A program made the position numbers and the translations under genes. A DNA stretch of 64,000 nt from Candidatus Levyibacteriota bacterium (GTDB lineage: Bacteria; Patescibacteriota; Microgenomatia; Levybacterales; UBA12049), in NCBI GenBank assembly GCA_027459725.1, contig DAIDHK010000003.1:931-64930 (forward strand), given 5' to 3'. Under the pieces are notes generated by a model. It saw only the letters and a program-made list of their open reading frames with translations, was not told where the DNA came from and did not search any database. This document shows, in pieces, positions 5,314 through 61,548 of the stretch; the stretch's first letter is position 1, and each line of letters starts with the position of its first letter.

Positions 5314-5578
5314 TACGTAGTCAAAAAAATAAAATAGAATGCTTATGACTGGCTCTATGTTCTTAAAAATGATGGCAAAGAATATTTGATTAAAATTGTT
5401 TGTCAAACCGAAGAGCAATAAGATCAAAGAAAGAACATTTACTAATCCATACAAATTATTCTTAGTTCTCTACTTGTAAAAAACTTTCGGTATGAACTAA
5501 TCCGCATTATAGTCTGGGCTCTGATTCTGGGATCTTGGCTTGACAGTAATACAAAAATACAGCAAACTAGAGTTATCT

Positions 5579-7693
5579 ATGTTTTCTCTTGCCCGTAAAT
5601 TGTTACTAACACTGTCAATAGCTCTTATTGTAATAATTTTTGCGATCAACCCGGCTTTTGCACAAACTACTACATCTACCACGCAAAGTGTAACGCCAAC
5701 AGTTGCAGATTATGCTGAAAATTTAAATGTTCAAAAACTGATGATTAACGTCATGAGTGCCATGAGTTGTCAGGTAGCAGGTATTAATGCAGCCTATCCC
5801 AATCAAGCTTGTTACGGCCAAAAGAGCAACCCCTTAAATGGTCAGGTTTCCCTGCAGAACACAAACAACCTCGGACTCATCGGCCTTGCAGTTCAGGGCA
5901 TCAACCTTACTTTTACTCCTATTGCCTCTCCCAATACCTATTTTCAGGATTTAGCTCAAAATTTCGGTTTTGTGAAACATACTTACGCATCTACCACCAC
6001 ACAATGTGCAAACGGCGGAGTATACGGGCAAGGAGTAGGATTTTGCCAGCTGCATCCACTGATGCAAATTTGGACTGTTGTCCGTAATCTTGCCTATTTA
6101 GGTTTTGTAGTAGTATTCATCTTTATTGGATTCGCCATAATGTTTAGAATAAAAATGAATCCTAATACCGTTGTAAGTATTCAAAGTACAATTCCCAAAG
6201 TCATAATTGCCTTGATTCTAATAACTTTTTCCTATGCCATTTCAGGATTTTTAATTGATATCATGTATGTTTCAATTGGAGTCATCACCCAGCTCGGAGA
6301 ACAAGTAGATCCTATTTCAATTAATAGTAATCATCAAAAGAACCCTGACATGGACAAAATTTTTTCTACTTTACAAGGAGATAATCCAATCAGCTTTGCC
6401 AGTCAAATGGTGGGATTAGGAGGAACAGCCAGTAACACTGCTCACGCTTTAGGAGATGCTGCTGGAGGAATTATAGGATCGTTCGGAGAAGGCGGTACAA
6501 TAATTGCCGCTTTGATTGGCGGCCTGGCGGGATCCAAAGTAGCCTCGGCACTTGGTTCGGGTCTGCAAATTGGAGGAGCAATAGTTGGAACAGCCATTGC
6601 AGCTATCACCGGAAATCCCGAACTCATACCAGCACTTTCTATGGGCGGAGCGAATATAGGTGGAGCTTTGGGACAAGTTATCGGTATCTCAGCTGGTGTT
6701 GGCAGCGCTATAAATAACGCCAGCGGCACTGTTGCCTGGATCGGCTATGTTGCAGCTGTGCTTATTTTATTTGTCGGAATACTAATTTCACTAGCACGGC
6801 TTTGGCTAACTTTGATTATGGCATATATAACTATTTTAGTAGATGTTGTCTTCGCACCGTTTTGGATTTTACTAGCAATTGTACCAAAATCTAAATTCAC
6901 TTTTACTTCCTGGATCAAGGATATGATTGCTAATCTGGCTGTTTTTCCGATGGTTATCGGCATTTTTGTCATAGCAAAGATATTCATCGATGCATTTAGT
7001 ACAGGCGTTGGGAATGGTGAGTTATTTGCTCCACCTCTTGTAGGCTTAGGCTCATTAAATGATGGGGCTAATACCATGCAAGGGATTATTGGCCTTGGTT
7101 TTATATTTATGGCACCTTCCCTGCTTAATATCTCACGCTCAATTTTTGGAGCGCCTAAATCAACTTTAATGTCTAATAGTATACAAAGCTTTATGATAGG
7201 AGCACAATCAGGCAGAAGAATTTGGGGAGTAACTGGCGGTAGGTTAATCGGTGTTGATAAAAACGGAAAGCCTAAACCATTCAGTGCAATGCTTGCGAAT
7301 AATCGCGCTGAAAGGGCCCATCACAAAACTGATGAACTACTTACTCTTCAAAGAGATCTTGATGCAGGCAAACTTACAGGCTTTGATGCAGTACGAGCTA
7401 AAGCCAAACTTCGACTCGCCAATGCGGGAAGAGGTTTCTCTAATCTGGGTCAAAATAGTACAGTAGAATTTAGGGAGAAACTTCGTAGTCGCTTAGACGA
7501 ACTACAAAGATCGGGTAGGTTTGATGGCCCTCAAATGGAAAAGTATATGAAAGACTATGCTGCCCGAGAAGTGGCCAGGTCAACAGGGCGAGCAAAATTA
7601 GCTACTAGTGAAAATCAGGTACTCGAGAAAGTTTTACAGGAATACAATCTAGGTGTTAAGCAACCAAATCCCACTCCCGGTGGCTCGCATTAG
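5579..7693 (+). CDS. VirB6/TrbL-like polytopic membrane protein. Signal peptide, Cys-containing extracytoplasmic N-domain, Gly-rich multi-TM core, about 170-aa charged cytoplasmic C-terminal tail. The ORF opens at 5540 with TTG, but the ATG at 5579 begins a canonical signal peptide.
   Basis: MFSLARKLLLTLSIALIVIIFAINPAFAQ signal peptide. There are at least 6 long hydrophobic segments with GxxxG/glycine-zipper runs. A basic/acidic C-terminus. Its size and topology match the TcpH/PrgH/VirB6 class, and it is in a locus with VirB4. Confidence 0.45.
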   Translation: MFSLARKLLLTLSIALIVIIFAINPAFAQTTTSTTQSVTPTVADYAENLNVQKLMINVMSAMSCQVAGINAAYPNQACYGQKSNPLNGQVSLQNTNNLGLIGLAVQGINLTFTPIASPNTYFQDLAQNFGFVKHTYASTTTQCANGGVYGQGVGFCQLHPLMQIWTVVRNLAYLGFVVVFIFIGFAIMFRIKMNPNTVVSIQSTIPKVIIALILITFSYAISGFLIDIMYVSIGVITQLGEQVDPISINSNHQKNPDMDKIFSTLQGDNPISFASQMVGLGGTASNTAHALGDAAGGIIGSFGEGGTIIAALIGGLAGSKVASALGSGLQIGGAIVGTAIAAITGNPELIPALSMGGANIGGALGQVIGISAGVGSAINNASGTVAWIGYVAAVLILFVGILISLARLWLTLIMAYITILVDVVFAPFWILLAIVPKSKFTFTSWIKDMIANLAVFPMVIGIFVIAKIFIDAFSTGVGNGELFAPPLVGLGSLNDGANTMQGIIGLGFIFMAPSLLNISRSIFGAPKSTLMSNSIQSFMIGAQSGRRIWGVTGGRLIGVDKNGKPKPFSAMLANNRAERAHHKTDELLTLQRDLDAGKLTGFDAVRAKAKLRLANAGRGFSNLGQNSTVEFREKLRSRLDELQRSGRFDGPQMEKYMKDYAAREVARSTGRAKLATSENQVLEKVLQEYNLGVKQPNPTPGGSH

Positions 7694-7761
7694 CCAATCC
7701 AACCGTTATAACATTTGGACGTCACTAAAATTTACTTTTAATCTTTAATGCTTAAAGAGGA

Positions 7762-10695
7762 CTAAAGACCCATATCTTTTTTGGCTGCTCCAACTAAAGG
7801 TGAGAGAACTTCTTTAGATACTTCACCCACTTTACCGGGTTTACGCATTTCGCGTACTAAATCAAGCAGGAATAAGTGTGGCTCAGTAATCCTCGCCTTT
7901 CTACGTAACCAACCGATTTCATAACGACTAAAGGCATGTCCCATAAATCGATTATTTTGTAAATTATCAGGATCACGAAATTCTGAATCCGGAACAGATC
8001 TCAAAACTGTAATTACTGAACGATAAAAGCTAGAACCGTAACGAATATCATGTCCATATCTAACACGATGGGCAAATATTTGTCCAGCTACTATGTTAAG
8101 AAAAATACTTTTCACTAAATCAACTTTATTGGTATTAACTTTCTGAGCATCTATAACATGCTGCCCAAAGATGTCTTTTATGGGCATATCGCGCAATTTA
8201 CGGGTAATTGGATGTATTCTCTTTTCTGTCTTCCAGAAGGCAGGAATGTCCAATACTTCTTTTCCAAACATAGCTTCTGCTAAAGGAACGGTGACAAAAT
8301 AAGAACGCTTTTCCATTTTTGGCTCACCGTGTTCCATGACTATATTCCCATCCGCGTCTCTTACGGCAAACTCGCCTTCCTGAATCATTTGATAGTCCTG
8401 AGCAAAGTTAGTACTACCCCAAGTGCTATACATGTTGTAGATTTTCTTTAAAATATCATTCAAAACCTTTTCACCAAAATCTTCTTCTTTAAGAACAAAT
8501 TGTTTATCACGATCATCAAACTTAGTATATTCTTCCCAATGAATTTCCTTACCTGAAGACATAAGATCATGAATGGCAACAGCATTACTAATATGATCTC
8601 TGGTATACTGAATCATTTCATTACGCTTGAAGCTTAATGTTTCAGCATTTTTCATGAAGGCTTGTTGTATAAGTAATTCTTCCTTTTTCTTTTCTTCCTC
8701 ATTTAGTGCCTGCTTTTTCTCAATATCTCTAACTTTTTCTGTCGCTTTATCTGCTTTGTCGCGCAATTCAAAGAAAGTTTCCGCAATACTTTTCCCATTA
8801 GTGGTAGCTCCAGCCCAGAAGAATGGCACAGCGGTCTCGGTAAGAGCATTTAAAGTAGTGGCAGGACCTGACCAACGCATGCGTCCTCTTACATCACGGA
8901 GTCTGCTTCTTAGAGATCTGTGAACTGCTGCTCCACTGAAGTTGCGAGCTTCAATATCAAGCATTGTTATAATGCCTGTTGCTTGAGCAAAGTTCTCTGC
9001 TAATAGATAGGCAAACTCCAAATTATCATTGTCTACTTTTTGCATCTCTGGATCAAGGTATACATCGTACCTTTTAGCCACCATACGACGGATAATATTT
9101 CTAACAGCCTTAATAATAAGTTCATCTTTTTGGGGTAAGTTAAACAGATTAACTACATCAAGTACATGATTTACAGGATCATTTTTTGCTTTTTTCCATT
9201 GTTCATCATTTTGTTCTAAGGCTTTGATCGTCTCATCCGGATCTCTGTGCAAATTTTTTGCCTGCTCTCTTACCTCTGCTTCAACAGTTTTGAAATCCAG
9301 CAATTCACATCCCTCTGGATATAGTTCTTCAAGTGCCCCACGGTTAGCTAGGTTCATGATTGTTTCAACCATTAACAAGAAAGAATAACCAACCTTATTG
9401 TCTGATCTTCTTCTAAGTGCACCGGTATCTTTATCTGGTATCATGTCAGAGGAATAATTCTGAGGTAAAGTAGCCATAAACTCCAGCATACTAGATTCAT
9501 CCCCATAAAACAGATCAGTAAAGCGGTTATCAGCAAAAAGTTGTGTTAACAAATTGGCATACTCTGGTCCACCCTTACCAAATTTTGTCCAAAACGTAAC
9601 GCCCTTGTCACGTGTCCACATAGCAACCAGCATTTCTTTGGCTATATTGTTACCTAATCTAAATAGATAGCCCTTCCTTGATCCTTCACCAAGTTCTTCG
9701 CGGAATAACTTTCCTTGTTTGATAACCATTTCTTGATAAAGATTAATAGTTCTACCACCAACCAGGAAGCTTAAGCGATCAATAAAATTAACTGGATCAC
9801 GCGGAGATTCTCCAGCGTAGAAGTTAATTCTTTCACGGACAAAACGCAATACATTCTCTTCTATTATTTCTATACTCTCTTCTTGAGGCCTTTTGGGTCT
9901 TATCCTACCATCAGGCCCTCTCTCCCAAGCCTTTATTCTTACCAGTGGAAAAGGAATCGTACCTTTTTTAGCTATATCCGGGTTCCTCAATTCACCTTCG
10001 GGAGCTATATTTTCAGCTCCCCATTTACTTTTATCTACACCTGTTGATAAGGCAAAAAACATATCCTGGGCAGTCTCAAAAGATTGGATTTTTTCCTGAG
10101 CTTTTACTTGTGCTTCCGACTGCATCTCCTCCACGTCAGCACGGTCCTTCATTGCTCTATCAATATCCGTTGTTGTGGGAGTGAGAGGAGTCTCTTCCAC
10201 TTGTGCTGTATCAACTTCTCGTGTTGTGGGTGTAGTTTCACCCTGTTGTACTTGTCCTAATCGACTTTTAATATTTTGTAGTGCTCTTTTTGCACGACTC
10301 AGCTTGTCAGCATTTTTTACTCTTCCCGCTCTCGTTTCTGCATTAATACGTGGTTCAACTACCTGCAATAAGTTATCAAGTTCAGATTGTTGAATTGGCT
10401 CTCCTGAACCAACTGACTTAAAACGCAGGTCTAAAACTGATTTTTCAAAATCTGCAGGTACTAAATCGCCCAGTTCATTGATTCCACCCAGTTCCAAAAG
10501 TTGCTTCAGAACCTCATAATCTATATTCGATCCTCCATCTATTGCTGCACGAGGGTTACGTCTTTCGTGCCCACGTGTTCTTTCATTTGTAGGATTACTC
10601 ATATTTTCCTTATCACTTTCAGCATAACCTACTCTGCGAGAAGGTGTCAAACGTGTCATCTCTTTTAAAGGATGGTAAATATATTCCCCCGACAT
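7762..10695 (-). CDS. large hypothetical cytoplasmic protein, 977 aa. No TM segment and no P-loop.
   Basis: Uninterrupted 2.9-kb ORF. Charged, with a disordered Thr/Pro-rich N-terminal segment. No recognisable catalytic motif by eye. Confidence 0.6.
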   Translation of the reverse strand: MSGEYIYHPLKEMTRLTPSRRVGYAESDKENMSNPTNERTRGHERRNPRAAIDGGSNIDYEVLKQLLELGGINELGDLVPADFEKSVLDLRFKSVGSGEPIQQSELDNLLQVVEPRINAETRAGRVKNADKLSRAKRALQNIKSRLGQVQQGETTPTTREVDTAQVEETPLTPTTTDIDRAMKDRADVEEMQSEAQVKAQEKIQSFETAQDMFFALSTGVDKSKWGAENIAPEGELRNPDIAKKGTIPFPLVRIKAWERGPDGRIRPKRPQEESIEIIEENVLRFVRERINFYAGESPRDPVNFIDRLSFLVGGRTINLYQEMVIKQGKLFREELGEGSRKGYLFRLGNNIAKEMLVAMWTRDKGVTFWTKFGKGGPEYANLLTQLFADNRFTDLFYGDESSMLEFMATLPQNYSSDMIPDKDTGALRRRSDNKVGYSFLLMVETIMNLANRGALEELYPEGCELLDFKTVEAEVREQAKNLHRDPDETIKALEQNDEQWKKAKNDPVNHVLDVVNLFNLPQKDELIIKAVRNIIRRMVAKRYDVYLDPEMQKVDNDNLEFAYLLAENFAQATGIITMLDIEARNFSGAAVHRSLRSRLRDVRGRMRWSGPATTLNALTETAVPFFWAGATTNGKSIAETFFELRDKADKATEKVRDIEKKQALNEEEKKKEELLIQQAFMKNAETLSFKRNEMIQYTRDHISNAVAIHDLMSSGKEIHWEEYTKFDDRDKQFVLKEEDFGEKVLNDILKKIYNMYSTWGSTNFAQDYQMIQEGEFAVRDADGNIVMEHGEPKMEKRSYFVTVPLAEAMFGKEVLDIPAFWKTEKRIHPITRKLRDMPIKDIFGQHVIDAQKVNTNKVDLVKSIFLNIVAGQIFAHRVRYGHDIRYGSSFYRSVITVLRSVPDSEFRDPDNLQNNRFMGHAFSRYEIGWLRRKARITEPHLFLLDLVREMRKPGKVGEVSKEVLSPLVGAAKKDMGL

Positions 10696-10778: not shown

Positions 10779-12122
10779 TTAGGGAGTAAACTTAAACCCT
10801 CGCCCCTTAATTGTCACAATATGTCTGGGATTCCCCGGATTGTCCTCAATCTTTTTTCGCAGTCTGAGAATTAGTTGATCAAGAGCTTGTTCAGTAACAC
10901 CAAATGTAGATTTATTCTCTTCCCAAACTACATCTATTACCTTTTCTCTGTCAATAATCATCCCAGGATTAAGTAAAAAATATTTTAACAAACGCAGTTC
11001 AGAAGCGGTTAAATTGTCCGACAATATCTGACTGCCTTTATGAATTAAGTTTTTTTCTACATCATATTCAATTTTATCATTAGTTATAACTACTGCATTG
11101 ACATCTTCCAGTAAAAACCTCTCTAAAAGTGGGATGGTTATTTTCCCACCGCTAACCAGCTGTAAATTAGTAAAGTAACTTTCGATATTTTTATTTTCCT
11201 CAGTTCTGTTTTTACCCAATAGCCACAGCTGTTCGGCAGGATTAAAAGAACGCCAAATCTCTTTTAATCCCCCTTTAACTGCCCGCTGGGCAAGCAAAAA
11301 ATCCGCGAATTTACTATCTTCAATTGCCTTCTTTTCATTAACTAAATAAGCTTCTGCAGCCAATCTGGTAAGTTTACCATGACCTGCTGTTAAATCTATA
11401 ATCATATTGCGAATTTTACTGCTAATATGCTTACCCGTCGCTTTTTCCATATAGTCCAGACGGAAAGGTAACCCCACGTCGTCTTTTAAACTTAAATAAA
11501 CTATATGTCCGGCTAAAAACTCATGAAATTCTGCAAATGACGAAGGTTCTATTAAATCTTCTAGCGGTTTATTTAAAGAAAAAACCACTGAAAAACGATA
11601 TTTTGCTCTGTGACGAAGAATTCTCAAGTTACTAAATAGTCCCTCATTAAGATATGGAATATAATCTTCAAAACGGTCAAAGAGTAGGACTATATTCATC
11701 TCCTCGTCAATTGCTAGATAGTCAATAGCATGCTTTAGAGCTTGAAAAAGAACCATTTCGTCATTGAACGATAATCCTTCTTTAAATAACTCATTAACAT
11801 CTGTATAAATATCATCCAATTGTCTCTGTCGCAGTGAATCAAGTAGACAAAGGAAAATATATTTAGTCACATTAAATAAATCTTTTCCTCTCATTTCGGA
11901 GAAGTCGACTATGACAAAGTTAATCCACTGATGATTTTCTTTCAGATGCATTTGTCGAATAAAACGGTTGTAAACCAATAAACTTAAAACTGTCCCTCTC
12001 CCTGCTCCCGGCAAGCCTACCAACTGACAGGAATTACCTTCATTGACATAAGATATAATCATCTCTATTTCTGTAAAACGCGTTTTGTCGGGATATAGAG
12101 ATTCAAAATGGGCAAGTTCCAT
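10779..12122 (-). CDS. putative transcriptional regulator. N-terminal P-loop NTPase (AAA/STAND-like) fused to a C-terminal OmpR/PhoB-type winged-helix DNA-binding domain.
   Basis: Walker A-like 'GLPGAGRGT' and Walker B-like 'IVLLFDRFED'. The C-terminus 'LTASELRLLKYFLLNPGMIIDREKVIDVVWEE...ALDQLILRLRKKIED...HIVTIKGRGFKF' matches the trans_reg_C (OmpR/PhoB) signature. Confidence 0.6.
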   Translation of the reverse strand: MELAHFESLYPDKTRFTEIEMIISYVNEGNSCQLVGLPGAGRGTVLSLLVYNRFIRQMHLKENHQWINFVIVDFSEMRGKDLFNVTKYIFLCLLDSLRQRQLDDIYTDVNELFKEGLSFNDEMVLFQALKHAIDYLAIDEEMNIVLLFDRFEDYIPYLNEGLFSNLRILRHRAKYRFSVVFSLNKPLEDLIEPSSFAEFHEFLAGHIVYLSLKDDVGLPFRLDYMEKATGKHISSKIRNMIIDLTAGHGKLTRLAAEAYLVNEKKAIEDSKFADFLLAQRAVKGGLKEIWRSFNPAEQLWLLGKNRTEENKNIESYFTNLQLVSGGKITIPLLERFLLEDVNAVVITNDKIEYDVEKNLIHKGSQILSDNLTASELRLLKYFLLNPGMIIDREKVIDVVWEENKSTFGVTEQALDQLILRLRKKIEDNPGNPRHIVTIKGRGFKFTP

Positions 12123-12132
12123 AGCAAAAATA

Positions 12133-12158
12133 GTATAGACAATCTGGGCTGTCTATAC
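12133..12158. promoter_or_regulatory. perfect 9-bp inverted repeat (GTATAGACA-N8-TGTCTATAC) in the divergent intergenic region between the ATPase-wHTH regulator and the pilin-fusion gene. Candidate operator.
   Basis: Seen directly in the sequence at 12133..12141 and 12150..12158. Confidence 0.35.
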
Positions 12159-12217
12159 CAGTATGATTATGGTTCGACCTCTTGCAAAGCCTAAAGATTT
12201 TGGGATACCATGAGAGT

Positions 12218-14872
12218 ATGCATTGTTATCCAAGAATATCAAAATTACTGTTTCCATTTCTTGTTTTTTTTATAGTTTTTGTTTCACTGTATAGAATTAA
12301 CTATGCTTTTGCAACGAGTAGCAATACGAGGTCATCAGGTACTTCTTTGGGAAGTGATAGTACAGTTTATACTATAGCTAACGGAGTAACTGTCACACAA
12401 TCGCCTAAAAATGTCTATGAAAATACCTCAAATATAACATTGTTGTTTAATATACCTGCTAGTAGTAATAATAATACCCCATACTATATTTTATTCTGGA
12501 ATCAGGCAAGCAATTGGCCTGACTACAATCATTGTGAGACTATAGGAAGTGAATTTCTTCTGGGAGGATGGGATAATGCTATGGGTATAGGTGGATGGTC
12601 AGGAGGCTCAAATGGAAAATGCACATTGCTTAATCCTAATGATTGGGGCAAAGATACATATACACTAGTACAAGATAAAACAGCAAAAGAGTTGACACCA
12701 TTGGGAAACAAATGGGGATATCAAGTATCAGTAAACACTTTACCTGGGGAAAGTATTAAATATAAAATTTGGCAAGGTGATGTTGAATCAAGTTATCAAG
12801 CATCCCAGATGATTGGTCAAATTAACATAGGACAATGTACTCAATCACAAAATGGCTGTCCTGGAATCGCGGTAGACAGCTACCCGGTTCAGTATGACAC
12901 TAATTTTCCTCTTTACATCGCCAATCCACATGCTGATACAGCCTACATAGTATGGTGGAAAGGATCTAATACAGTAATCTGGTCAGGCTCGTTCACTACT
13001 AACCAAATAAAAAGTGCTTCGAAATTCAACGTTATTGGCAGTAATAACTCCACCGTGTCAGTTCCCGCAATTAAGCTGCAAAACAATGGCCAGGACGTGA
13101 CACAAATAGTTTCCAGCAGCGAAGATTCGAATCTTCCAATTGATAGCAGCAATGATTTTAAGTACAAAACATTATGTCTATATCAAGCGACGCCTCAAAA
13201 TTTAGCCTCAATAATTTCAAATTTCTCGCTAAAATGTGACTCAACCGCCAAATCAACCCGAGTCTATTTCGGTATTAATGGGCAACCACTCGGGTCTGGA
13301 ACGTTACTGTCGAATGGTAACATCGGTGCTCCATCTGCTTCTGAGAACTTTAACCTGCAGTCTGTTAACACCGGATTCTTTCTACCCTGTATTTCCCCCA
13401 CGCCCACCCCAGTTAATCAAGCATATAATAGCAAGAACTCTTCAAATACATCATTTGCTGATGCTTGGAAAAATATATTGGCAGACGCCGCTTTCTTCTT
13501 TACCGGTCAATCTGCCATGCCAAGTCCAACTTCTTCCAACATAAATCAACAACTCGCCTACTCACAAATTACCCCTGCCCAAACAACTCCAGAATTTTTA
13601 ATGTCCACAACTAATCAGTCAACCACTCCCATTAGCGTCGGCCCCGCTTCTGTATCCCCAGGGGATACTTTCGTTGTTGGTTTAACATCTCCGATAAGCA
13701 ATAATTACACTCTATCTATACACGATGGTAGCAACAATAGCTTACTAAATAGCAACATTACTCAATATTGCCAATCAGGAAAAGCATGCGACTTTATTAT
13801 AAATAGCAGTAAGTATTCTAATTACAAGTTCACATTCCCTACAAATCCGCAAAACTTTCAGATCACTATCGCCGATAATAATAAAACCGTAGGTATGACA
13901 GATGTGGCATTCACCCAATCAGCATCTTCCAATGTTAATGACAGTCAAACTCAGAACACAACCACAACAAAAAATATACAAAACGATGGAACTATTACTA
14001 TACAGAATCTTGGTAACAAGCAGAATACTGGCTCTGCTAATATTTATTCCGATGACGCTTTATCGGTTTATATTTCATATAACAGCAAAACTTCTATTAA
14101 AAACTGCTCTGTAGCTATCGCGGTAAATCAATCAGCTATTACCGCACTATCGCCACAAACCTGTAACAATAGTACTTCACCGAATTCTAACACAAACTTA
14201 TTGCCTTTAGATCTATCAAAATATAGTCAGTTTGCATCTATTACTACCCCTACTGACCTCAGTCTAAGTGCGGTTGCCTATGACACTAATGGTAACATAC
14301 TTTCAATAAAGAAAGACTTTACAATCTATCCGGTTTGTGGTACTCAAGAATGCAATGGATCATGTATAAATGTGCCTGGACAAAGCCAGATTTATTGTGC
14401 AGAACCAACTAGTACGCCTACTCTTAGCCCAACACCAAACGCTCAACAGTCTATTTGCAATTCATGTTTGGCGAGTGGTACAAGCGATTGTAGTAGCGCC
14501 TGCACTGCTGCTACAACAGTTTCTGATACTCCAAGCGTAGAGACTCCAACATCATACCCTACTCCTGTAAATATAGGCTTCTCCCCCTGTTATCAGGTAG
14601 ATACCGCCATTGGAATGATAAGCACAGATCCTATTTCCTTTGTTAATAATATGTTTGATATTTTATTAAGCCTAAGCGGCGGCATTGCTCTTCTGATTAT
14701 CATCTACAACGGTTACCGCTTGTTAATCTCACGGGGCAATCCCGATGCCATCAAAAAAGCCCGTGAGGGTATTACCTCTGGTATTATTGGCATCATCTTT
14801 GCTATTCTATCTATTGCCATTCTACAAACTATTGGCGTTGATATATTACATTTGCCAGGTTTTGGCAATTAA
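12218..14872 (+). CDS. secreted Ser/Thr/Asn-rich surface protein (about 885 aa) with a C-terminal VirB2/TrbC-type pilin-like hydrophobic hairpin. Candidate pilus-tip adhesin or minor pilin fusion. The ORF opens at 12182 with TTG; the ATG at 12218 is preferred.
   Basis: Signal peptide MHCYPRISKLLFPFLVFFIVFVSLYRINYAFA. Long low-complexity Cys-containing ectodomain. The last about 90 aa 'GGIALLIIIYNGYRLLISRGNPDAIKKAREGITSGIIGIIFAILSIAILQTIGV' have the same helix-loop(K/R-rich)-helix pattern as the small pilin paralogs downstream. Confidence 0.5.
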   Translation: MHCYPRISKLLFPFLVFFIVFVSLYRINYAFATSSNTRSSGTSLGSDSTVYTIANGVTVTQSPKNVYENTSNITLLFNIPASSNNNTPYYILFWNQASNWPDYNHCETIGSEFLLGGWDNAMGIGGWSGGSNGKCTLLNPNDWGKDTYTLVQDKTAKELTPLGNKWGYQVSVNTLPGESIKYKIWQGDVESSYQASQMIGQINIGQCTQSQNGCPGIAVDSYPVQYDTNFPLYIANPHADTAYIVWWKGSNTVIWSGSFTTNQIKSASKFNVIGSNNSTVSVPAIKLQNNGQDVTQIVSSSEDSNLPIDSSNDFKYKTLCLYQATPQNLASIISNFSLKCDSTAKSTRVYFGINGQPLGSGTLLSNGNIGAPSASENFNLQSVNTGFFLPCISPTPTPVNQAYNSKNSSNTSFADAWKNILADAAFFFTGQSAMPSPTSSNINQQLAYSQITPAQTTPEFLMSTTNQSTTPISVGPASVSPGDTFVVGLTSPISNNYTLSIHDGSNNSLLNSNITQYCQSGKACDFIINSSKYSNYKFTFPTNPQNFQITIADNNKTVGMTDVAFTQSASSNVNDSQTQNTTTTKNIQNDGTITIQNLGNKQNTGSANIYSDDALSVYISYNSKTSIKNCSVAIAVNQSAITALSPQTCNNSTSPNSNTNLLPLDLSKYSQFASITTPTDLSLSAVAYDTNGNILSIKKDFTIYPVCGTQECNGSCINVPGQSQIYCAEPTSTPTLSPTPNAQQSICNSCLASGTSDCSSACTAATTVSDTPSVETPTSYPTPVNIGFSPCYQVDTAIGMISTDPISFVNNMFDILLSLSGGIALLIIIYNGYRLLISRGNPDAIKKAREGITSGIIGIIFAILSIAILQTIGVDILHLPGFGN

Positions 14873-14874: not shown

Positions 14875-15240
14875 ATGTTAAAAGAACATTTATTAGCCTT
14901 ATCTATTCCTGGGGAGAATGGGAGTAGCACTAATATCGTAATGCCTAACGCAGTAAACTGCGGCAGTAATGGCTGTTTGAACACAGTCATGCAATACATC
15001 ATACAATGGCTTTTCGTAGGAGCCATCATTCTTTGTCTAGCTTACCTAATCTGGGGCGGGATTGATTGGACAATGTCCTATGGAGACAAAACGAAAGTGC
15101 AAAAAGCCCGTTTAAAACTTGTGTATGCCATTATTGGTTTATTTATAGTTTTCCTCGCTTTCTTCTTTGTTAATTTGGGAGGACACTTACTTGGTCTACC
15201 TCTTACTAATGTCAGTACAACTATCAATACAACTCCTTAA
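14875..15240 (+). CDS. VirB2/TrbC-like pilin-family protein, paralog 1 (121 aa)
   Basis: N-terminal leader with a Cys pair, then 'WLFVGAIILCLAYLIWGGIDWTMSYGDKTKVQKARLKLVYAIIGLFIVFLAFFFV' (two TM helices separated by a short basic loop). It starts 2 bp after the fusion gene. Confidence 0.5.
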   Translation: MLKEHLLALSIPGENGSSTNIVMPNAVNCGSNGCLNTVMQYIIQWLFVGAIILCLAYLIWGGIDWTMSYGDKTKVQKARLKLVYAIIGLFIVFLAFFFVNLGGHLLGLPLTNVSTTINTTP

Positions 15241-15262
15241 CTTTCAACTATAATAGAACAGC

Positions 15263-16495
15263 ATGAAGGCTTCCCTCTTTTATTTTTTAAGTGCCTTTTT
15301 ACTTTTACTTTTAAGTTTGGTCGCAGTTATTGGCCCGCATACAGAACTTATAGACGTAACAGAATATCACTGTTATGCCAGTATCTTCTGGACTGGGCAT
15401 TTACAAATCAACAAAACTGAACAACGATACTGTTTATCTGAGATTAAATCAAACCAAATACATAAATATAAATTACCCCAGGAGTATCCTCTACTTAGCC
15501 TGTTTATCTTTTCTCTTCCCCTACTTTCTCCTTTCAGCTACAGCCTAGGTTTTAGACTATTAATGCTGGTATTTTTACTAACTATCTGGATGTATTTTTT
15601 CAAAGTTAAAAAATTTACTTCAGGTATAATATTTCTATTATTAATCACGCTTGGACTTAGCTCAGTTACCTTTAACCGTTATGACTTAAGTGCTACCACT
15701 TTAACCTTTTTTGCCATAATACTGGCTTATAATAAAAAGTTTCTTCCCAGTTACTTATTATTAGCACTAGCAACGTTTCTCAAAATTTATCCCCTTTTTC
15801 TTATACCGTTGGTCTTCCTTTTTGAATTACAAACCCATAAGCATAAACTACTCAATCTAAAAAATTACTACTTCGTTTCACTTGGAGTCATTGCATTAGC
15901 CTTACTGCTAATACTTTCACTCAAGCTTGATTTTGTTCAAACGCTTGCACCCCTACAGTATCAAGCAGCCAGGCCACTACAAATAGAATCTATCCCCGCT
16001 TCCATCTTTTTGCTAACTAGCTTCGGAAAAGTATGTTTTATTCAATCTTTTGGTTCACTTAATATTCTTCATTCTATTAACCATCAATGTTCTCCCAACT
16101 TAGTCAGTCAAACTCTGGAGACTATCTTTAGTATCCTAATGCTATTAAGCCTTATAGTCGTCTATCTAAACTTCTTCAAAGGTAGAATTAAATTCACAGG
16201 CGCCGTGGTCTTATTAATCTTAAGTCTTCTTATCTTTAACAAAGTCTTGAGTCCGCAATATTTTATTTGGCTGGCTCCTTTTTTAGCTCTAAAATATAAA
16301 AAAATCTCATTAAATACACTTATCTGGTTTATACTCTTTGCGCTAACTTATTTAATTTACCCAATAATGTATTCCCAAACTAGTATGAGTAATTTACTGG
16401 GAGTAATTTCCGTACGTAACATTCTTTTAGTTTTTCTATATATCTATACATGGAAAGAAGTATTACATAAATTCAAGAAACAGTCTGTAAAATAG
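15263..16495 (+). CDS. polytopic membrane protein, possibly a GT-C-fold glycosyltransferase (410 aa)
   Basis: About 11 TM helices. An acidic 'DVTEY' motif lies in the first predicted external loop, reminiscent of the GT-C D-E-x-x-Y motif. It sits between the pilin genes. Confidence 0.4.
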   Translation: MKASLFYFLSAFLLLLLSLVAVIGPHTELIDVTEYHCYASIFWTGHLQINKTEQRYCLSEIKSNQIHKYKLPQEYPLLSLFIFSLPLLSPFSYSLGFRLLMLVFLLTIWMYFFKVKKFTSGIIFLLLITLGLSSVTFNRYDLSATTLTFFAIILAYNKKFLPSYLLLALATFLKIYPLFLIPLVFLFELQTHKHKLLNLKNYYFVSLGVIALALLLILSLKLDFVQTLAPLQYQAARPLQIESIPASIFLLTSFGKVCFIQSFGSLNILHSINHQCSPNLVSQTLETIFSILMLLSLIVVYLNFFKGRIKFTGAVVLLILSLLIFNKVLSPQYFIWLAPFLALKYKKISLNTLIWFILFALTYLIYPIMYSQTSMSNLLGVISVRNILLVFLYIYTWKEVLHKFKKQSVK

Positions 16496-16499
16496 AACT

Positions 16500-18041
16500 A
16501 TGAACAAATCTATTAAGCAATGTTTATCATTTATAAAAAAGCATATCTATCTCATCTTGTTAATTAGCTTTTTCTCACTTTATACTCTGGAGGGCATTTA
16601 TTTGCTCGATCCAGATTTCGGTTGGCACTTACGTTTTGGTGAAATAGTATTACAAACCCACAGTGTCCCCTTAAAAGATCTATTTTCATATACCATGCCA
16701 AGCTATGACTTCATTAATCATGAATGGTTTTCAGACGTTATTATCGCCGTTATTTACCATTTAACCGGACTTGTAGGAGTAGCTATATTTTTTGGACTAT
16801 TCGTCACTATTGGACTTGGAGTAGTAGTTAACATTGCCCAAAAGAAAGATAAGATTGGTTTCTGGCTGTCACTTTTAACTATGGTCGCTGTAACAATGGT
16901 GCAATTTGCCGGCATTCGCCCACAAGCTTTAAGCTGGACATTCTTTGTTTTAGTCTGGTATTTGTTGGATATCTCAAAAAATAAATGGCGCTTTATAATC
17001 TTGCCTATCATTTTCCTCATCTGGGCTAATCTGCACGCCGCCTTTGCTTTAGGGTTATTTCTATTTTTTGTTGCTGTCATCAATTCTTTGCTTAAAAAAG
17101 ATAGAAGCAGTATTTATCTGTTAATCTCCTTCATCATATCGACCGGGGCTACCTTGATTAACCCTTATGGATTTAAATTATGGCAAGAAGTCATTCTCAC
17201 CTCAGCTTCCCCGCAAATCTCCACTGTTGAAGAATGGACGCCAAGTTTCACCCACATTATCTTTCCCATGTGGCTATTTATTGATTTCTCATTAATTCTC
17301 CTCTGGTTCAACAGATCTAACGTAGCTAAGAAAAATATTTTTTTACTAACTGTTATTGGCATACTTTTTTTAGTAGGCATACGACAGGCTCCGCTATTTA
17401 TGTTGTTTTTATTACCTTTAGCAATTGAGGCAGTGAATGATTTCATTGACCAGGCAAAAAAATATCAGTATGCCATTAAACGCCTAAAAGTTGCATCACT
17501 AATAGTAACTATCATCACTGTTGTTTTCTGTATTATTACCTTATGGCCTCTGGAATCCAGCTTATGGAAAAGCGGATTTAACATCCAAAAAAGTATTTCA
17601 TTAACTTACCCAAGCACTTCTGTCAAATATTTAAAAACTCACCCATTTAAAGGCAATTATTATTCAATATATAACTGGGGTGGTTATTTGATCTGGCAAC
17701 TCCCTAACAAAAAAGACTTCATAGATGGTCGTATGCCTACCTGGATTAATCCCAATGCACCCAAAAATGAAAGCAAAAATGCATTGCAGGATTTTCTCAA
17801 GATAGACAATCCAAAAATACTGGACAAAACAATTCATAAGTATCATATAACCACCCTAATAATCGCACCATTGAAACAATCTGTTCCTCAATGCTGGTGG
17901 CTGCAAAACTGGTGTAATCAAGTCATCAAGCAAAGAAATAAGCAAAATCAGCCACTTGAAACTTATCTCCATATTCATCACTGGCATGAGCTAATACACG
18001 ACAAAGTCTCAGTTGTTTATCAGTTATCTGTTAGTCAGTAA
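16500..18041 (+). CDS. polytopic membrane protein, possibly a GT-C-fold glycosyltransferase (PMT/ArnT/YfhO-like), 513 aa
   Basis: About 11-12 TM helices plus a C-terminal soluble domain. An acidic loop 'LDPDFGWHLRFGE' follows TM1. It starts 4 bp after the previous gene. Confidence 0.4.
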   Translation: MNKSIKQCLSFIKKHIYLILLISFFSLYTLEGIYLLDPDFGWHLRFGEIVLQTHSVPLKDLFSYTMPSYDFINHEWFSDVIIAVIYHLTGLVGVAIFFGLFVTIGLGVVVNIAQKKDKIGFWLSLLTMVAVTMVQFAGIRPQALSWTFFVLVWYLLDISKNKWRFIILPIIFLIWANLHAAFALGLFLFFVAVINSLLKKDRSSIYLLISFIISTGATLINPYGFKLWQEVILTSASPQISTVEEWTPSFTHIIFPMWLFIDFSLILLWFNRSNVAKKNIFLLTVIGILFLVGIRQAPLFMLFLLPLAIEAVNDFIDQAKKYQYAIKRLKVASLIVTIITVVFCIITLWPLESSLWKSGFNIQKSISLTYPSTSVKYLKTHPFKGNYYSIYNWGGYLIWQLPNKKDFIDGRMPTWINPNAPKNESKNALQDFLKIDNPKILDKTIHKYHITTLIIAPLKQSVPQCWWLQNWCNQVIKQRNKQNQPLETYLHIHHWHELIHDKVSVVYQLSVSQ

Positions 18042-18097
18042 GTTATACATTGACCTCTTGACAAGTCTGTGTAATTTTAACTAGAGTATAAATAGAT

Positions 18098-18532
18098 ATG
18101 AAATTTGACTTGAAAAAATCATCGCTTTTTGCCTCTACTTTCGTGACACTAGGTGCGCTTACTACTGTTTCTTCATTTGCTGCAGGTACTGATAATGCTA
18201 TCAGCATTTGTCCTGCCGGTTCAGCTTTCTCAGGAGTCTGTAACTTTAACACTAGTACACTCTTAGGTAGTGTTATCAATGTCGTCTTCGTTATCGCTAT
18301 CTTAATCGCCCTCTTCTTCCTGATCTATGGCGGTATCCGTTGGATTATCTCCCAGGGTAATAAGGAAAAGGTTAATGGTGCTCGTGATATGTTAATCGCT
18401 GCTTTAGTAGGTTTGATTGTTGTCTTCCTCTCCTACTTCCTACTCGGTCTGGTCATACAGTTGTTATTTGGTCAGTCAACACAAAATCTGTTAAATTCAG
18501 TTACTACTAACGGTATCTTTAATACGAAATAA
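18098..18532 (+). CDS. VirB2/TrbC-like pilin-family protein, paralog 2 (144 aa)
   Basis: Signal peptide ending '...SSFAAG'. Cys pair 'CPAGSAFSGVC'. Hydrophobic hairpin 'VINVVFVIAILIALFFLIYGGIRWIISQGNKEKVNGARDMLIAALVGLIVVFLSYFLLGLVIQLLF'. Confidence 0.6.
   Translation: MKFDLKKSSLFASTFVTLGALTTVSSFAAGTDNAISICPAGSAFSGVCNFNTSTLLGSVINVVFVIAILIALFFLIYGGIRWIISQGNKEKVNGARDMLIAALVGLIVVFLSYFLLGLVIQLLFGQSTQNLLNSVTTNGIFNTK
18206..18474 (+). repeat. copy A of a 269-bp near-identical segment (2 mismatches) shared by the tandem pilin genes
   Basis: Direct comparison of 18206..18474 with 18739..19007. They differ only at A/G 18366 vs 18899 and A/G 18466 vs 18999. Confidence 0.85.
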
Positions 18533-18636
18533 ATAGTTCTTAATGCTCTCCTCCTTTTAGTCTCATTTCCTAATTTCTGTTTTTAGAGTCAACCATTGAC
18601 AAATCATATTGGCTGCGTTTAAAGTATTAATATACC

Positions 18637-19206
18637 ATGAAAATAAGTATTAAAAGATTTGCCACCGGTTTAATCAGCATTAGTAGTTTAGTTGCCTTTT
18701 CAGCTACTCCAGCATTTGCAGGCGGTAATGTTGTTAGTATTTGTCCTGCCGGTTCAGCTTTCTCAGGAGTCTGTAACTTTAACACTAGTACACTCTTAGG
18801 TAGTGTTATCAATGTCGTCTTCGTTATCGCTATCTTAATCGCCCTCTTCTTCCTGATCTATGGCGGTATCCGTTGGATTATCTCCCAGGGTAATAAGGAG
18901 AAGGTTAATGGTGCTCGTGATATGTTAATCGCTGCTTTAGTAGGTTTGATTGTTGTCTTCCTCTCCTACTTCCTACTCGGTCTGGTCATACAGTTGTTGT
19001 TTGGTCAAACTACTCAGAACTTACTTAACTCTGTTACAAGTAATGGAATATTTAATAGCGGAGTTACTAATTCTCAGTCTCTTCCTTCTTGTTCATCCTA
19101 TTGTCCTAACACAAGTACATGTCTGGCAAATAATGTAAATGCTAGTGCTTATCAAGGGTGTATAACAAACTGCGAAACTAACCACGGTGGAGGTCAATGT
19201 AATTAA
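18637..19206 (+). CDS. VirB2/TrbC-like pilin-family protein, paralog 3 (189 aa), with a divergent N-terminus and an extra Cys-rich C-terminal tail
   Basis: The core is identical to paralog 2. The C-terminal extension 'PSCSSYCPNTSTCLANNVNASAYQGCITNCETNHGGGQCN' contains 7 cysteines. Confidence 0.6.
   Translation: MKISIKRFATGLISISSLVAFSATPAFAGGNVVSICPAGSAFSGVCNFNTSTLLGSVINVVFVIAILIALFFLIYGGIRWIISQGNKEKVNGARDMLIAALVGLIVVFLSYFLLGLVIQLLFGQTTQNLLNSVTSNGIFNSGVTNSQSLPSCSSYCPNTSTCLANNVNASAYQGCITNCETNHGGGQCN
18739..19007 (+). repeat. copy B of the 269-bp near-identical pilin core segment
   Basis: See copy A. The mirrored spurious antisense ORFs in the track (18043..18279 and 18627..18812, both starting MITLPKSVLVLKLQTPEKAEPAGQ) also reveal the duplication. 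Confidence 0.85.
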
Positions 19207-19253
19207 TTGACTAGTTTATTGTTTCTAACAAATACTTCTGCTAGATTATCTAT

Positions 19254-19610
19254 ATGGACTGGAATAATTGTCTGCAGAATGTAACAGATTCTTCAAATAA
19301 AGTGGTTGGCCAAGCTGCCACATTAAACTGTGTACCCGTACTCTTCTCTAACTTAGTCAATGCTGCGTTTGTCTTTGCTGGTAGTGTTGCAGTCATCTTT
19401 ATTATTTGGTCAGGAATTCAATATATAATGTCAGGTGGGGACCCTAAAAAGGCCGAGGGCGCGAAGAAAACATTAACCTGGTCTATCATAGGACTTTTAC
19501 TCATTGTCTTCTCTGTGGCGATTATAAACATCCTAGCAACCATTACAGGCGCTCATTGCATCACTATGTTTGGATTTAACAACTGTCAGACCAATATCGC
19601 AGGCAATTAG
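19254..19610 (+). CDS. VirB2/TrbC-like pilin-family protein, paralog 4 (118 aa)
   Basis: 'LVNAAFVFAGSVAVIFIIWSGIQYIMSGGDPKKAEGAKKTLTWSIIGLLLIVFSVAIINILATI' shows the same helix-basic loop-helix pattern. There are Cys residues in the leader and the tail. Confidence 0.5.
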   Translation: MDWNNCLQNVTDSSNKVVGQAATLNCVPVLFSNLVNAAFVFAGSVAVIFIIWSGIQYIMSGGDPKKAEGAKKTLTWSIIGLLLIVFSVAIINILATITGAHCITMFGFNNCQTNIAGN

Positions 19611-19629
19611 TGGCCAGGCGTGTTATTCT

Positions 19630-19995
19630 TTAATTCTGCGCATTTCCTTCGCTCTTAATTATTTTATTCAATTCTTCTTTTGTTACTGACAAGTCTGAAT
19701 CATCTTTTATGCTCATTAAATATTGATCAAAAGACTGCTGTGTCTGCTTAAGAACATCTGGATAAAGATCTCCTTCCATTTTACGCTTCCCATCTTTAAT
19801 TTCTTCCATAGCAATTTGTAAGTTAGTCTGTACCTGCATTTCAAATAAAGAGTCGTAAGTTGTCCAGAGAATCTGATCCACAACATAATGCTCTGATTCA
19901 TCCATCGTGTCATATTTGGTCGCTAGTTCCTCCTGAAAGCTTTTTTCAAAAGGTAAAAGTTTGATTAAATCTTTCGTTTTATGTGCTTTGTCCAT
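19630..19995 (-). CDS. hypothetical acidic cytoplasmic protein, 121 aa
   Basis: ORF immediately downstream (minus strand) of the 1073-aa gene, with 5-bp spacing. Confidence 0.45.
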   Translation of the reverse strand: MDKAHKTKDLIKLLPFEKSFQEELATKYDTMDESEHYVVDQILWTTYDSLFEMQVQTNLQIAMEEIKDGKRKMEGDLYPDVLKQTQQSFDQYLMSIKDDSDLSVTKEELNKIIKSEGNAQN

Positions 19996-20000
19996 AGTTT

Positions 20001-23222: not shown

Positions 23223-23261
23223 ATATAAAAATGGTAATTGATTTGAAGTATTTATTCAAGT

Positions 23262-24563: not shown

Positions 24564-24669
24564 AAACTTTTCACAAAATTTGGCACCACTTAGGCCTATA
24601 TTTGACCCACTTTGATAATCTTGAACACAGATTTTTCACGTTATACACTTTTTGTAGGAGTGAGATACT

Positions 24670-26241: not shown

Positions 26242-26246
26242 TAACT

Positions 26247-26897: not shown

Positions 26898-26940
26898 AAA
26901 GTGTCTGTAAACAACTTTAATATTATTACACTAATTAATT

Positions 26941-36445: not shown

Positions 36446-36687
36446 AATATATTTAATTGTAGTTGTAGTAGTGTATCGGGAAATGTGGAAAAATGCAAGA
36501 GCATAATGCCCTATAAAACGACGATAATTATAAAAACGAAGCTGTTATTCAGCTTATAATTATATCTTCGTCATGTAATAATAAAATATTGGTGGTTGTC
36601 AATTCGTGACTAAAAGAATGTGGAAAAGATGTTGATAAAATTGGGGAAAACCTGTTGATAAAGTGTAAAGTGAGTTATACACTTTTT
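36446..36687. promoter_or_regulatory. dnaA-dnaN intergenic DnaA-box cluster (oriC-like). Four co-oriented 9-mers within 180 bp.
   Basis: TGTGGAAAA at 36484..36492 and 36619..36627. TGTTGATAA at 36630..36638 and 36653..36661. Each is 1 mismatch from TGTGGATAA, the complement of TTATCCACA. The context is AT-rich. Confidence 0.5.
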
Positions 36688-61520: not shown

Positions 61521-61548
61521 AAATAAACCTGGTCTGTCCAGGTTTATT
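61521..61548 (+). terminator. perfect 11-bp stem / 5-nt loop hairpin (AAATAAACCTGG-TCTGT-CCAGGTTTATT) followed by GTGTTGT. Candidate intrinsic terminator or attenuator just upstream of rpoD.
   Basis: Seen directly in the sequence. Confidence 0.4.

Follow-up and report, generated by a model that had tools for sequence, protein, structure and literature searches.

A STAND-type module joined to an OmpR/PhoB winged helix in a putative regulator encoded beside the type IV secretion pilin arrays of Patescibacteria

We analysed a 64,000-nucleotide (nt) stretch of a Candidatus Levyibacteriota genome (contig DAIDHK010000003.1, positions 931 to 64,930; hereafter the window) and found that a gene on its minus strand, at 10779–12122, encodes a 447-amino-acid (aa) protein, hereafter the regulator, in which a nucleotide-binding module of the STAND (signal transduction ATPases with numerous domains) type precedes a C-terminal OmpR/PhoB winged helix. 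The protein is conserved across Patescibacteria, where its placement beside the pilin array of a type IV secretion system (T4SS) is near-obligatory, and from this context it is probably a dedicated regulator of the T4SS pilin operon. An earlier note, made from the sequence alone, had claimed the open reading frame (ORF), the order P-loop AAA+/STAND module then OmpR/PhoB winged helix, and an operator palindrome next to the gene. The ORF is present as claimed and the architecture is upheld by Pfam, an AlphaFold2 model, Foldseek and homology, whereas the palindrome did not hold up as an operator.

A STAND-type module followed by an OmpR/PhoB winged helix

The OmpR/PhoB-type winged-helix domain occupies residues ~345–447 (10782–11090, minus strand). 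Within it, Pfam Trans_reg_C (PF00486) matched residues 370–445 (nt 10788–11015) at E=8.3e-18 with 64.7 bits against a cutoff of 26.2, spanning profile positions 5–77 of 77, and the same domain was matched in 50 of 50 aligned homologues. The top sequence matches of the C-terminus in the PDB were to the DNA-binding domains of RegX3 (E=3.6e-11), YycF, KdpE, PhoP, PhoB, OmpR and ToxR, and Foldseek gave target TM-scores (TMt) of 0.75–0.77 to those of PhoP, KdpE and YycF. The C-terminus thus scores as Trans_reg_C, as the earlier note had expected. The modelled fold comprises strands 351–354 and 359–362, helices 373–384, 392–400 and 411–425, and strands 435–438 and 442–445, that is, the N-terminal beta-sheet, three-helix bundle and C-terminal beta-hairpin wing of a winged helix. 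The recognition-helix region TEQALDQLILRLRKKIE is almost unchanged throughout the family, with T410, Q412, A413, D415, Q416, R420, R422 and K424 invariant.

The regulator is not a two-component response regulator. It shares with the OmpR/PhoB response regulators a homologous DNA-binding domain, in which recognition helix and wing are both conserved, but it has neither a receiver domain nor a phospho-acceptor Asp: Pfam and NCBIfam found no Response_reg match, and the N-terminus folds as AAA+/STAND instead. The NCBIfam models RpaB, PhoB, OmpR and KdpE align to it by their last ~100 positions only (from ~position 125), scoring 20–50 bits against cutoffs of 250–500. The label 'response regulator transcription factor', which some database entries give to its relatives, is a mis-annotation.

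The N-terminal module (residues 1–341; 11100–12122, minus strand) was delimited from the AlphaFold2 secondary structure, Foldseek and phmmer. The AlphaFold2 model of the regulator, built from 50 homologues, had a predicted local distance difference test (pLDDT) score of 88.9 and a predicted TM-score (pTM) of 0.87. It shows a nucleotide-binding domain (NBD) at residues ~1–212 with an alpha/beta core (strands 32–35, 67–73, 143–149, 177–183 and 207–209), a helical lid at ~217–261 and an internal winged-helix-like domain at ~269–341, followed by the OmpR-type domain. Foldseek matched the model to AAA+/STAND proteins at probability 1.0, including ORC4, Orc1/Cdc6, PABY2304 (2qen, TMt 0.52), SSO1545 (2fna), MalT (8bob), CED-4 and RFC. 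The P-loop core, helical lid and winged helix that make up the nucleotide-binding oligomerisation domain (NOD) of STAND proteins are therefore all present in the model, and the earlier expectation of an NTPase fold agrees with the model, the Foldseek matches and the homology to P0175 described below. No repeat sensor domain (TPR, WD40, LRR or similar) was found; there was no repeat-family match, and in the model the NOD and the winged helix-turn-helix (wHTH) fill all 447 residues.

The architecture defines a populated family

A protein identical to the regulator (P0001) was found in the public collection, on an NCBI contig of 133 kb, together with more than 700 full-length homologues (E≤1e-3), typically at ~50% identity. 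Those with a source name came nearly always from Patescibacteria (e.g. Levybacteria), and their database annotation was merely 'winged helix-turn-helix domain-containing protein'. A phmmer search with the N-domain (residues 1–338) against 1.84 billion representative proteins (E≤1e-3) retrieved 393 representatives at 50% clustering, nearly all of 430–500 aa. When ten of the more distant ones (18–28% identity) were scanned with Pfam, a C-terminal Trans_reg_C was matched in all ten, and nSTAND1, AAA_16, AAA_22 or NPHP3_N also matched in seven. One relative, P0175, was found by the window N-domain alone at E=7.6e-16 and aligned end to end in full-length BLASTP at E=3e-32; it carries Trans_reg_C and exceeds the Pfam gathering scores of nSTAND1 (45.4 versus 27.1) and AAA_16 (36.2 versus 32.6). 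In addition, sub-threshold nSTAND1 matches were seen in 11 of 50 close homologues (best E=0.011). The regulator would belong to the nSTAND1 clade by transitive homology through P0175. That clade was first delineated, as a new group of STAND proteins, among prokaryotic conflict (counter-invader) systems (PMC8195603). The earlier note had called the architecture unusual: the domain order is real, but rather than a one-off it represents a populated superfamily of uncharacterised proteins.

In the distant branch, the members that carry names are Anaerolineae/Chloroflexi and include proteins with a normal Walker A lysine. Their nSTAND1 + Trans_reg_C proteins (e.g. P0175, P0204 and P0381; ~460–480 aa) have the same domain order, can be aligned to the regulator end to end, and have in common with it a Walker B 'D-x-F-D/E' and the conserved R167/R170. 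In contrast to the regulator, these proteins match Pfam nSTAND1/AAA_16 directly, their Walker A is the canonical GxGKS (K in 56 of 70), and the genes after theirs usually encode a TCAD9/kinase-like protein and a second STAND/AAA-type NTPase in place of a T4SS. In the Anaerolineae-type loci L171–L173, L175 and L177, the homologue (nSTAND1 + Trans_reg_C, Walker A Lys) is followed by a TCAD9/APH/kinase-like protein, after which L175 and L177 encode a second STAND/AAA-type NTPase (nSTAND1 or AAA_35). This three-gene cassette recurs and is reminiscent of 'ternary' conflict systems. We also considered whether the T4SS linkage is older than Patescibacteria and rejected this as a general rule: weak T4SS_pilin genes lie near the homologue in L170, but four other Anaerolineae-type loci have none.

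An arginine-type P-loop is fixed in the Patescibacteria clade

The Walker A-like P-loop GLPGAGRGT (residues 36–44; 11991–12017, minus strand) lies between strand 32–35 and helix 42–51 of the model. The GAGRGT variant of Walker A to which the earlier note had drawn attention is confirmed: Arg42 stands at the canonical Lys position and Gly43 at the Ser/Thr position, so that the regulator departs from the canonical GxxxxGK[ST]. This loop aligns with GSGKS of an ABC ATPase and with GMAKS of P0175. At the end of strand 143–149 lies a conserved Walker B-like strand, IVLLFDRFED (residues 144–153; 11664–11693, minus strand), in which the hhhhD pattern and nearby acidic residues are provided by D149, E152 and D153, while Arg150 sits in the usual second acidic position.

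Residue frequencies were counted on a hidden Markov model alignment of 224 relatives, divided into a close Patescibacteria set (n=119) and a distant Anaerolineae-type set (70 with a residue at the position). At position 42 the close set has R in 110 and K in 6, and the distant set K in 56 and R in 6. Position 43 is S in 99 and G or A in 18 of the close set, and S in 64 of the distant set. The Walker B Asp at position 149 is kept in 114 and 56 sequences, respectively. Position 150 is R in 118 of the close set and variable (R, Q or E) in the distant one, and the acidic residue at position 152 is E in 114 and D or E in 64. Residues G39, G41, R42, D149, R150, E152, R167, R170 and H248 of the pocket are invariant or nearly so, and position 42 alternates almost exclusively between R and K. 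By these alignment counts, the change from Lys to Arg is a derived, fixed trait of the whole Patescibacteria clade.

Walker A Lys-to-Arg, Gly in place of Ser/Thr and Arg at the second Walker B position usually impair ATPase activity. In P-loop proteins, Lys-to-Arg often keeps nucleotide binding and cripples hydrolysis, and Walker A Lys-to-Arg mutants such as RAD51 K133R commonly still bind nucleotide. Arg42, together in the window protein with Gly43, which replaces the Mg-binding Ser, suggests binding with little or no hydrolysis; with both changes, the pocket may bind without hydrolysing or may contain no nucleotide whatsoever. Purifying selection on the pocket around Arg42 favours a phosphate-ligand site that has been retained over one that has decayed.

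The regulator gene lies beside T4SS pilin arrays

The gene divergent from the regulator encodes a pilin-adhesin (12218–14872, plus strand; its ORF opens at 12182 and its probable start is at 12218). The 896-aa ORF has a signal peptide, a long Ser/Thr/Asn-rich region and a C-terminal VirB2-like T4SS_pilin domain (PF18895, residues 820–882, E=6.8e-8), which confirms the divergence of the regulator from a pilin-adhesin operon described in the earlier note.

We compared 81 non-redundant regulator loci, which were collected by protein-identity look-ups and a scan of metagenome contigs, and onto which the window proteins were mapped by tblastn. A contig scan with the full-length alignment was discarded, as its patterns were drawn from the winged helix and retrieved generic OmpR-family regulators, with L001 the only true relative; the replacement scan used patterns of the N-domain alignment. 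T4SS pilin arrays directly adjoin the regulator in 56 of the 81 loci, followed by PrgI, TraC-like and VirB4 genes. The arrangement is co-directional in 41 loci, with the regulator first and the pilins downstream on the same strand ahead of PrgI, TraC-like and VirB4, and divergent in 15, with the pilins upstream (the window, L081, L082, L123, L150 and L156 among them). Pilins were undetected in the other 25, nearly all of which are short of flanking sequence; L154, L090 and, less clearly, L135 and L136 are exceptions with adequate flanks. The pilin/T4SS neighbourhood is thus present in more than 90% of regulator loci with adequate flanks, and a place beside the T4SS pilin array is near-obligatory for the regulator in Patescibacteria.

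Whichever the orientation, the regulator is flanked on one side by the pilin array and on the other by a large protein without Pfam matches, which is preceded by a TrbL-like gene. The regulator gene alone is inverted between lineages (e.g. L083–L089 versus the window), and both neighbours keep their orientation. An invertible segment was considered and rejected, as no convincing inverted repeats flank the regulator in the window (the best were 13 nt at 85%).

Predicted promoters of the regulator and pilin genes

The likely start codons of the two divergent genes are 95 bp apart. The 60-bp spacer given in the earlier note rested on TTG at 12182 as the start of the pilin-adhesin gene, and the likely start is ATG at 12218, before the signal peptide. 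CTTGCA at 12181–12186 is a conserved promoter element, so that this TTG is part of a promoter and not a start codon. The predicted pilin-adhesin promoter and start (12181–12220, plus strand), recognised by conservation, consist of CTTGCA, TACCAT at 12206–12211 and ATG at 12218. In L081 the promoter reads CTTGCAA-N18-TACGAT-N6-ATG, and the same layout follows right after the regulator stop codon in co-directional loci. We searched the locus sequence, 1.24 Mb in total, with the pattern CTTGC[AT]-N16-19-TA[CGT][CGT]AT-N5-8-[AG]TG and obtained 37 matches, 26 of them beside a regulator gene. Co-directional pilin promoters are mostly at most 130 nt from the regulator stop codon, often just 4–15 nt, and the divergent ones of the window and L081 lie 54–59 nt upstream of the regulator.

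For the regulator gene, a -10 box is predicted at TATACT (12132–12137, minus strand), 9 nt upstream of the ATG and at the same distance as in L081 and L082 (9–10 nt across this sub-clade); it overlaps the proximal arm of the palindrome. Eighteen loci share a regulator promoter with GCTTGATA as -35, N17 and TTACAAT, the ATG following 6–9 nt past the -10 box; the outliers are L161, with an ATG spacing of 17 nt, and L154, with TACAGT further upstream. Other sub-clades have TACAAT or TAGAAT 6–9 nt before the regulator ATG. Six-mer statistics over the upstream regions of 79 orthologs singled out only TACAAT, (G)CTTGATA and TTACAA. From these spacings, the regulator mRNA is predicted to be leaderless or near-leaderless. 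The first pilin gene likewise has a -10-like hexamer 6–10 nt before its start, which is GTG in some loci, and the large divergent gene of other loci (e.g. L087, L120 and L141) has the same layout with the hexamer TAAACT. Such -10-like hexamers close to starts suggest widespread leaderless transcription at the T4SS locus. An RpoD gene in the window is consistent with sigma-70-type promoters.

The spacer of the regulator promoter also holds a conserved TTAYAA word, 11 bp before the TTACAA of the -10 and ~45 nt upstream of the ATG (L087, L089, L120, L132, L141, L143, L155, L159, L164 and others). The TTAYAA/TTACAA pair has the direct-repeat geometry typical of OmpR/PhoB sites and is a possible candidate for an auto-regulatory site.

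The palindrome of the intergenic spacer

A perfect palindrome, GTATAGACA-N8-TGTCTATAC, is present at 12133–12158, as the earlier note reported, between the predicted regulator -10 and the pilin -35. To assess such repeats, we counted perfect inverted repeats (arms, 9 nt or longer; spacers, 3–20 nt) and took first-order Markov (Markov-1) simulations as the null. The window contains four of this class against 6.2 ± 2.5 simulated, which is chance level. In its 6.2 kb of intergenic DNA, 0.87 are expected (P of at least one, 0.59) and three were observed (P of at least three, 0.054). The chance expectation is 0.013 for the chosen 95-nt spacer alone, and an expectation of zero holds for the exact palindrome sequence only; the palindrome is notable only where that spacer was chosen in advance.

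In L081, whose protein is 70% identical, and in L082, the equivalent spacers lack a repeat of this kind, and what they have in common with the window is limited to the -10 and the pilin promoter. No enrichment of the half-site was seen in the window (16 sites, with 13 ± 4 expected), its 1.8-fold excess near orthologs comes from seven sites, mostly in L157, and the enriched words upstream of the 79 orthologs do not include the palindrome. A relaxed pattern, GTAT-N2-ACA, is 5.7-fold denser upstream of regulators, through the window, L157 and one L146 site, but it was defined post hoc. Upstream of the L157 regulator (108–160), GTATATACA occurs twice as a direct repeat 13 bp apart, with TGTCAATAC 22 nt downstream, each copy one mismatch from the arms of the window palindrome, and upstream of the L125 regulator GCGTATAG occurs twice, 14 bp apart. 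These motifs could hint at a lineage-variable GTAT-N2-ACA site, a statistically weak signal.

As an RNA hairpin, the palindrome has a modest stability (-13 kcal/mol, z about -2). A terminator scan flagged it as an intrinsic terminator for the minus strand, with a 12-pair stem and then TTTTTGCTAT. We rejected this reading, as the 2.7 kb upstream contain no minus-strand gene and the hairpin stands 10 nt before the regulator ATG. The palindrome could conceivably act as a leader attenuator fed by a weak TTGATA-N16-CATACT match at 12242–12215, but this match falls inside the start region of the pilin gene. Two other perfect intergenic inverted repeats were noted, at 36525–36562 (TAATTATAA-N20, between dnaN and dnaA) and at 61522–61548 (AATAAACCT-N9, after a gene ending at 61465), the latter resembling a terminator position.

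Proposed mechanism and alternative explanations

We consider it about as likely as not that the regulator is a sensor-less STAND one-component transcription factor whose ligand-governed assembly acts on the adjacent pilin promoter. In this mechanism, the N-module (P-loop NBD, helical lid and winged helix), a divergent nSTAND1 relative fused to an OmpR/PhoB wHTH without sensor repeats, would bind a nucleotide or another phosphate ligand in its conserved pocket, and the ligand would govern oligomerisation, as in MalT and AfsR. Oligomerisation would gather the winged helices on DNA at the promoter of the adjacent pilin operon (CTTGCA-N18-TACGAT-start), the assembled regulator would probably act at its own promoter too, and the T4SS pilin genes would thereby be switched on or off. 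The nucleotide switch suggested in the earlier note stands as far as the P-loop AAA+/STAND fold is concerned, and the switch itself would follow by analogy with MalT and AfsR. Its suggestion of a master regulator of the pilus and secretion locus gains strong indirect support from the synteny, which by itself speaks for association. A bolder version, which we consider doubtful, makes the regulator a clade-wide master switch of the T4SS pilin, with an Arg-type P-loop turned from an ATPase into a pure ligand sensor (e.g. of host-derived nucleotides or energy state) through which the pilus and secretion genes, expressed from leaderless oriC-adjacent promoters, would respond to contact with the host or to nutrient status.

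Several observations weigh against the proposed mechanism. The N-terminal ~340 aa have no match of their own in Pfam and NCBIfam scans, and against Pfam the window protein gave no NTPase match and no nSTAND1 (PF20703) match at E≤1. A profile of the N-domain matched in the PDB only the P-loop of an ABC ATPase (E=0.004); its matches to Csm1 were spurious, and sequence alone leaves the fold unplaced. With its altered Walker residues, the N-module may be catalytically dead or nucleotide-free. The synteny demonstrates association rather than regulation, and the different cassette context of the Anaerolineae relatives indicates that the ancestral role was not T4SS control. Finally, the search for an operator by half-site counts, 6-mer enrichment and the GTAT-N2-ACA pattern found only promoter hexamers robustly enriched.

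Instead of acting through the pilin promoter element, a symmetric dimer of the regulator could control both divergent promoters from one site, with the palindrome as operator. The repeat is perfect, lies exactly between the two start codons, is rarely expected in a 95-nt spacer, and spans about -11 to -36 of the predicted regulator promoter with its centre about -72 from the pilin start, which are classical positions for a repressor and a class-I activator; three of the four window repeats are intergenic against the 0.87 expected, and the unrelated locus L157 has three GTAT-N2-ACA motifs upstream of its regulator. Yet one or more such repeats would arise readily by chance over all intergenic DNA, the half-site is unenriched in the window and near orthologs, and the proximal arm coincides with the conserved -10 TATACT. 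Moreover, a near-invariant recognition helix predicts a conserved site, whereas the palindrome is missing from the L081 and L082 spacers, and OmpR/PhoB-type domains usually bind head-to-tail direct repeats. We therefore regard a palindromic operator as unlikely; at best, the palindrome would serve a single lineage as an auto-regulatory site within the core promoter of the regulator, and it is probably not the operator of the family. It is similarly improbable that the N-module is a nucleotide-free pseudo-ATPase scaffold whose constitutive oligomerisation or partner binding makes the protein a constitutive or partner-controlled DNA binder. The exchange of the Walker A Lys for Arg (110 of 119 members of the clade), Gly or Ala at the Ser/Thr position in 18 of 119 (the window protein included), Arg at the second Walker B position and the lack of a sensor domain all fit such a scaffold, but the P-loop glycines, R/K42, D149, E152, R167, R170 and H248 are under strong purifying selection, position 42 toggles between the phosphate-binding residues R and K where a decayed site would drift, and, as noted, the Lys-to-Arg mutants of other proteins commonly retain nucleotide binding.

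Two further explanations place the protein outside transcriptional control of the pilins, and we consider both very unlikely. An ORC/Cdc6-like protein might mark or process DNA for a relaxase-less T4SS or act at the nearby replication origin, given that the best Foldseek matches are ORC4 and Orc1/Cdc6 on DNA, that the locus is ~23 kb from dnaN and dnaA, and that most Patescibacteria T4SS clusters are without a relaxase (PMC12102498). The DNA-binding domain, however, is of the OmpR/PhoB transcription-factor type and not an Orc1 winged helix, the gene tracks the pilin array and not dnaA across loci, and the sequence relatives are nSTAND1-type STAND proteins, not initiators. The protein might equally be a sensor of a conflict system with an anti-invader role like other nSTAND1 proteins, its T4SS adjacency being incidental, in keeping with the counter-invader systems in which nSTAND1 was defined, the TCAD9/kinase-like and second STAND/AAA-type NTPase genes beside the Anaerolineae homologues, and the toxin-antitoxin or Abi genes next to the regulator in some loci (L084: AbiEii). 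Against this, the TCAD9 partner genes are absent from the Patescibacteria loci examined, more than 90% of flanked loci, in two gene orientations, retain the pilin/T4SS neighbourhood, and the protein has no effector domain.

Relation to known regulators and secretion systems

Known STAND regulators have either a C-terminal LuxR helix-turn-helix (HTH), as in MalT and the LAL family, or an N-terminal OmpR wHTH, as in AfsR and the SARP family. In MalT, ligand- and ATP-dependent oligomerisation drives promoter binding. The regulator resembles MalT/LAL proteins in its N-terminal STAND NTPase module (NBD, helical domain and winged helix), for which MalT (8bob) was among the Foldseek matches, and in its C-terminal DNA-binding domain. 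It differs in that MalT has ~900 aa, a large SUPR/TPR sensor and a LuxR-type HTH, whereas the regulator has 447 aa, no sensor, an OmpR/PhoB wHTH and Arg in place of the Walker A Lys. The resemblance is limited to the NOD module, as neither GerE/LuxR nor TPR_MalT gave a Pfam match in the regulator.

AfsR and the large SARPs (SARP-NOD-TPR) likewise combine an OmpR-type winged helix and a STAND NOD in one transcription factor (PMC10936776). The order is reversed in the regulator, since AfsR begins with the winged helix, continues with BTAD and ends in TPR repeats; no Pfam match to BTAD or TPR was found in the regulator, which places it outside the AfsR-type SARPs. L176 encodes an AfsR-like protein (Trans_reg_C, BTAD and NB-ARC) that contrasts with the regulator directly. 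The best overall structural matches, archaeal Orc1/Cdc6 and the PF01637-type PABY2304 (2qen) and SSO1545 (2fna), are proteins of 350–400 aa with an AAA+ core, a lid and a winged helix, but they have no detectable sequence similarity to the regulator, a canonical Walker A Lys and no extra OmpR-type domain. The regulator family is set apart by the order NOD then C-terminal OmpR wHTH, the absence of sensor repeats, the fixed Walker A Arg and the linkage to T4SS pilins. Literature searches found no paper on this family or on a natural Walker A Arg in STAND regulators, and the regulator is not mentioned in a recent survey of Patescibacteria T4SS (PMC12102498).

The Patescibacteria (candidate phyla radiation) have tiny genomes and few recognisable regulators. 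A regulator beside the pilin array and adjoining a strongly conserved promoter offers a concrete, testable handle on the control of host interaction. The T4SS-like system of Patescibacteria, marked by arrays of VirB2-like pilins, is widespread and lies on the chromosome near the origin, and in Saccharimonadia it is reported to be required for growth as epibionts (summarised in PMC12102498). For protein science, the family provides a minimal, sensor-free STAND transcription factor made of a NOD and an OmpR winged helix, and the fixed Walker A Arg in one clade against Lys in the sister clade is a ready comparison for the effect of this substitution on the STAND switch. The valuable part of the finding is the protein and its genomic linkage and not the palindrome.

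Further features of the window and related loci

The rest of the T4SS-like cluster in the window (14875–29091, plus strand), assigned by Pfam and with a gene order repeated in homologous loci, contains further T4SS_pilin genes (14875–15240, 18098–18532 and 18637–19206), a PrgI-family protein (24670–26241), a 216-aa TraC-like homologue (26247–26897) and a VirB4-type ATPase (26941–29091), all on the plus strand, with a CHAP hydrolase gene also among the genes after the pilin array. Interspersed ORFs have no Pfam match, and those at 19630–23222 are on the minus strand. With the window pilins as queries, tblastn detected an extra pilin-like stretch at 19329–19583 that is absent from the list of ORFs (minimum 120 aa) and could represent a pilin gene that is short or degraded. 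On the other side of the regulator, a 977-aa protein (7762–10695, minus strand) is encoded directly downstream, recognised by its conserved position, and a TrbL/VirB6-like gene lies at 5540–7693 (Pfam). The 977-aa protein has no Pfam match and no PDB sequence match; a protein of 860–990 aa holds its position in most homologous loci, and tblastn similarity to it was detectable only in L081, L128–L130 and L169, which indicates fast divergence.

The window is chromosomal and origin-proximal, with dnaN (35339–36445), dnaA (36688–38109), leuS, ruvB, guaA, dnaG and rpoD. The dnaN and dnaA genes lie ~6 kb past the last gene of the T4SS cluster, in agreement with the reported origin-proximal tendency of Patescibacteria T4SS (PMC12102498). 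A gene at 38413–39489, adjoining dnaA, encodes an rve-family (Mu-like) transposase with an N-terminal HTH, and in L082 a DDE_Tnp_1 transposase lies inside the pilin array. In L084/L085, the regulator is separated from the pilin array by a DUF6922 + AbiEii pair of the toxin-antitoxin/abortive-infection type (7333–8219). A small gene of the PF05635/bAvd type (23S rRNA intervening-sequence protein family; 5582–6000) has been inserted shortly before the regulator in these two loci, and after it heptad-like tandem repeats (CTAGTTG/CTAATTG) extend to the regulator ATG. The same repeats stand before the regulator ATG in L097, L105, L109, L114, L121, L126 and L137, and TTTTGA(A/C)TTT-type repeats are found upstream of the regulator instead in L091, L127, L129, L133 and L135.

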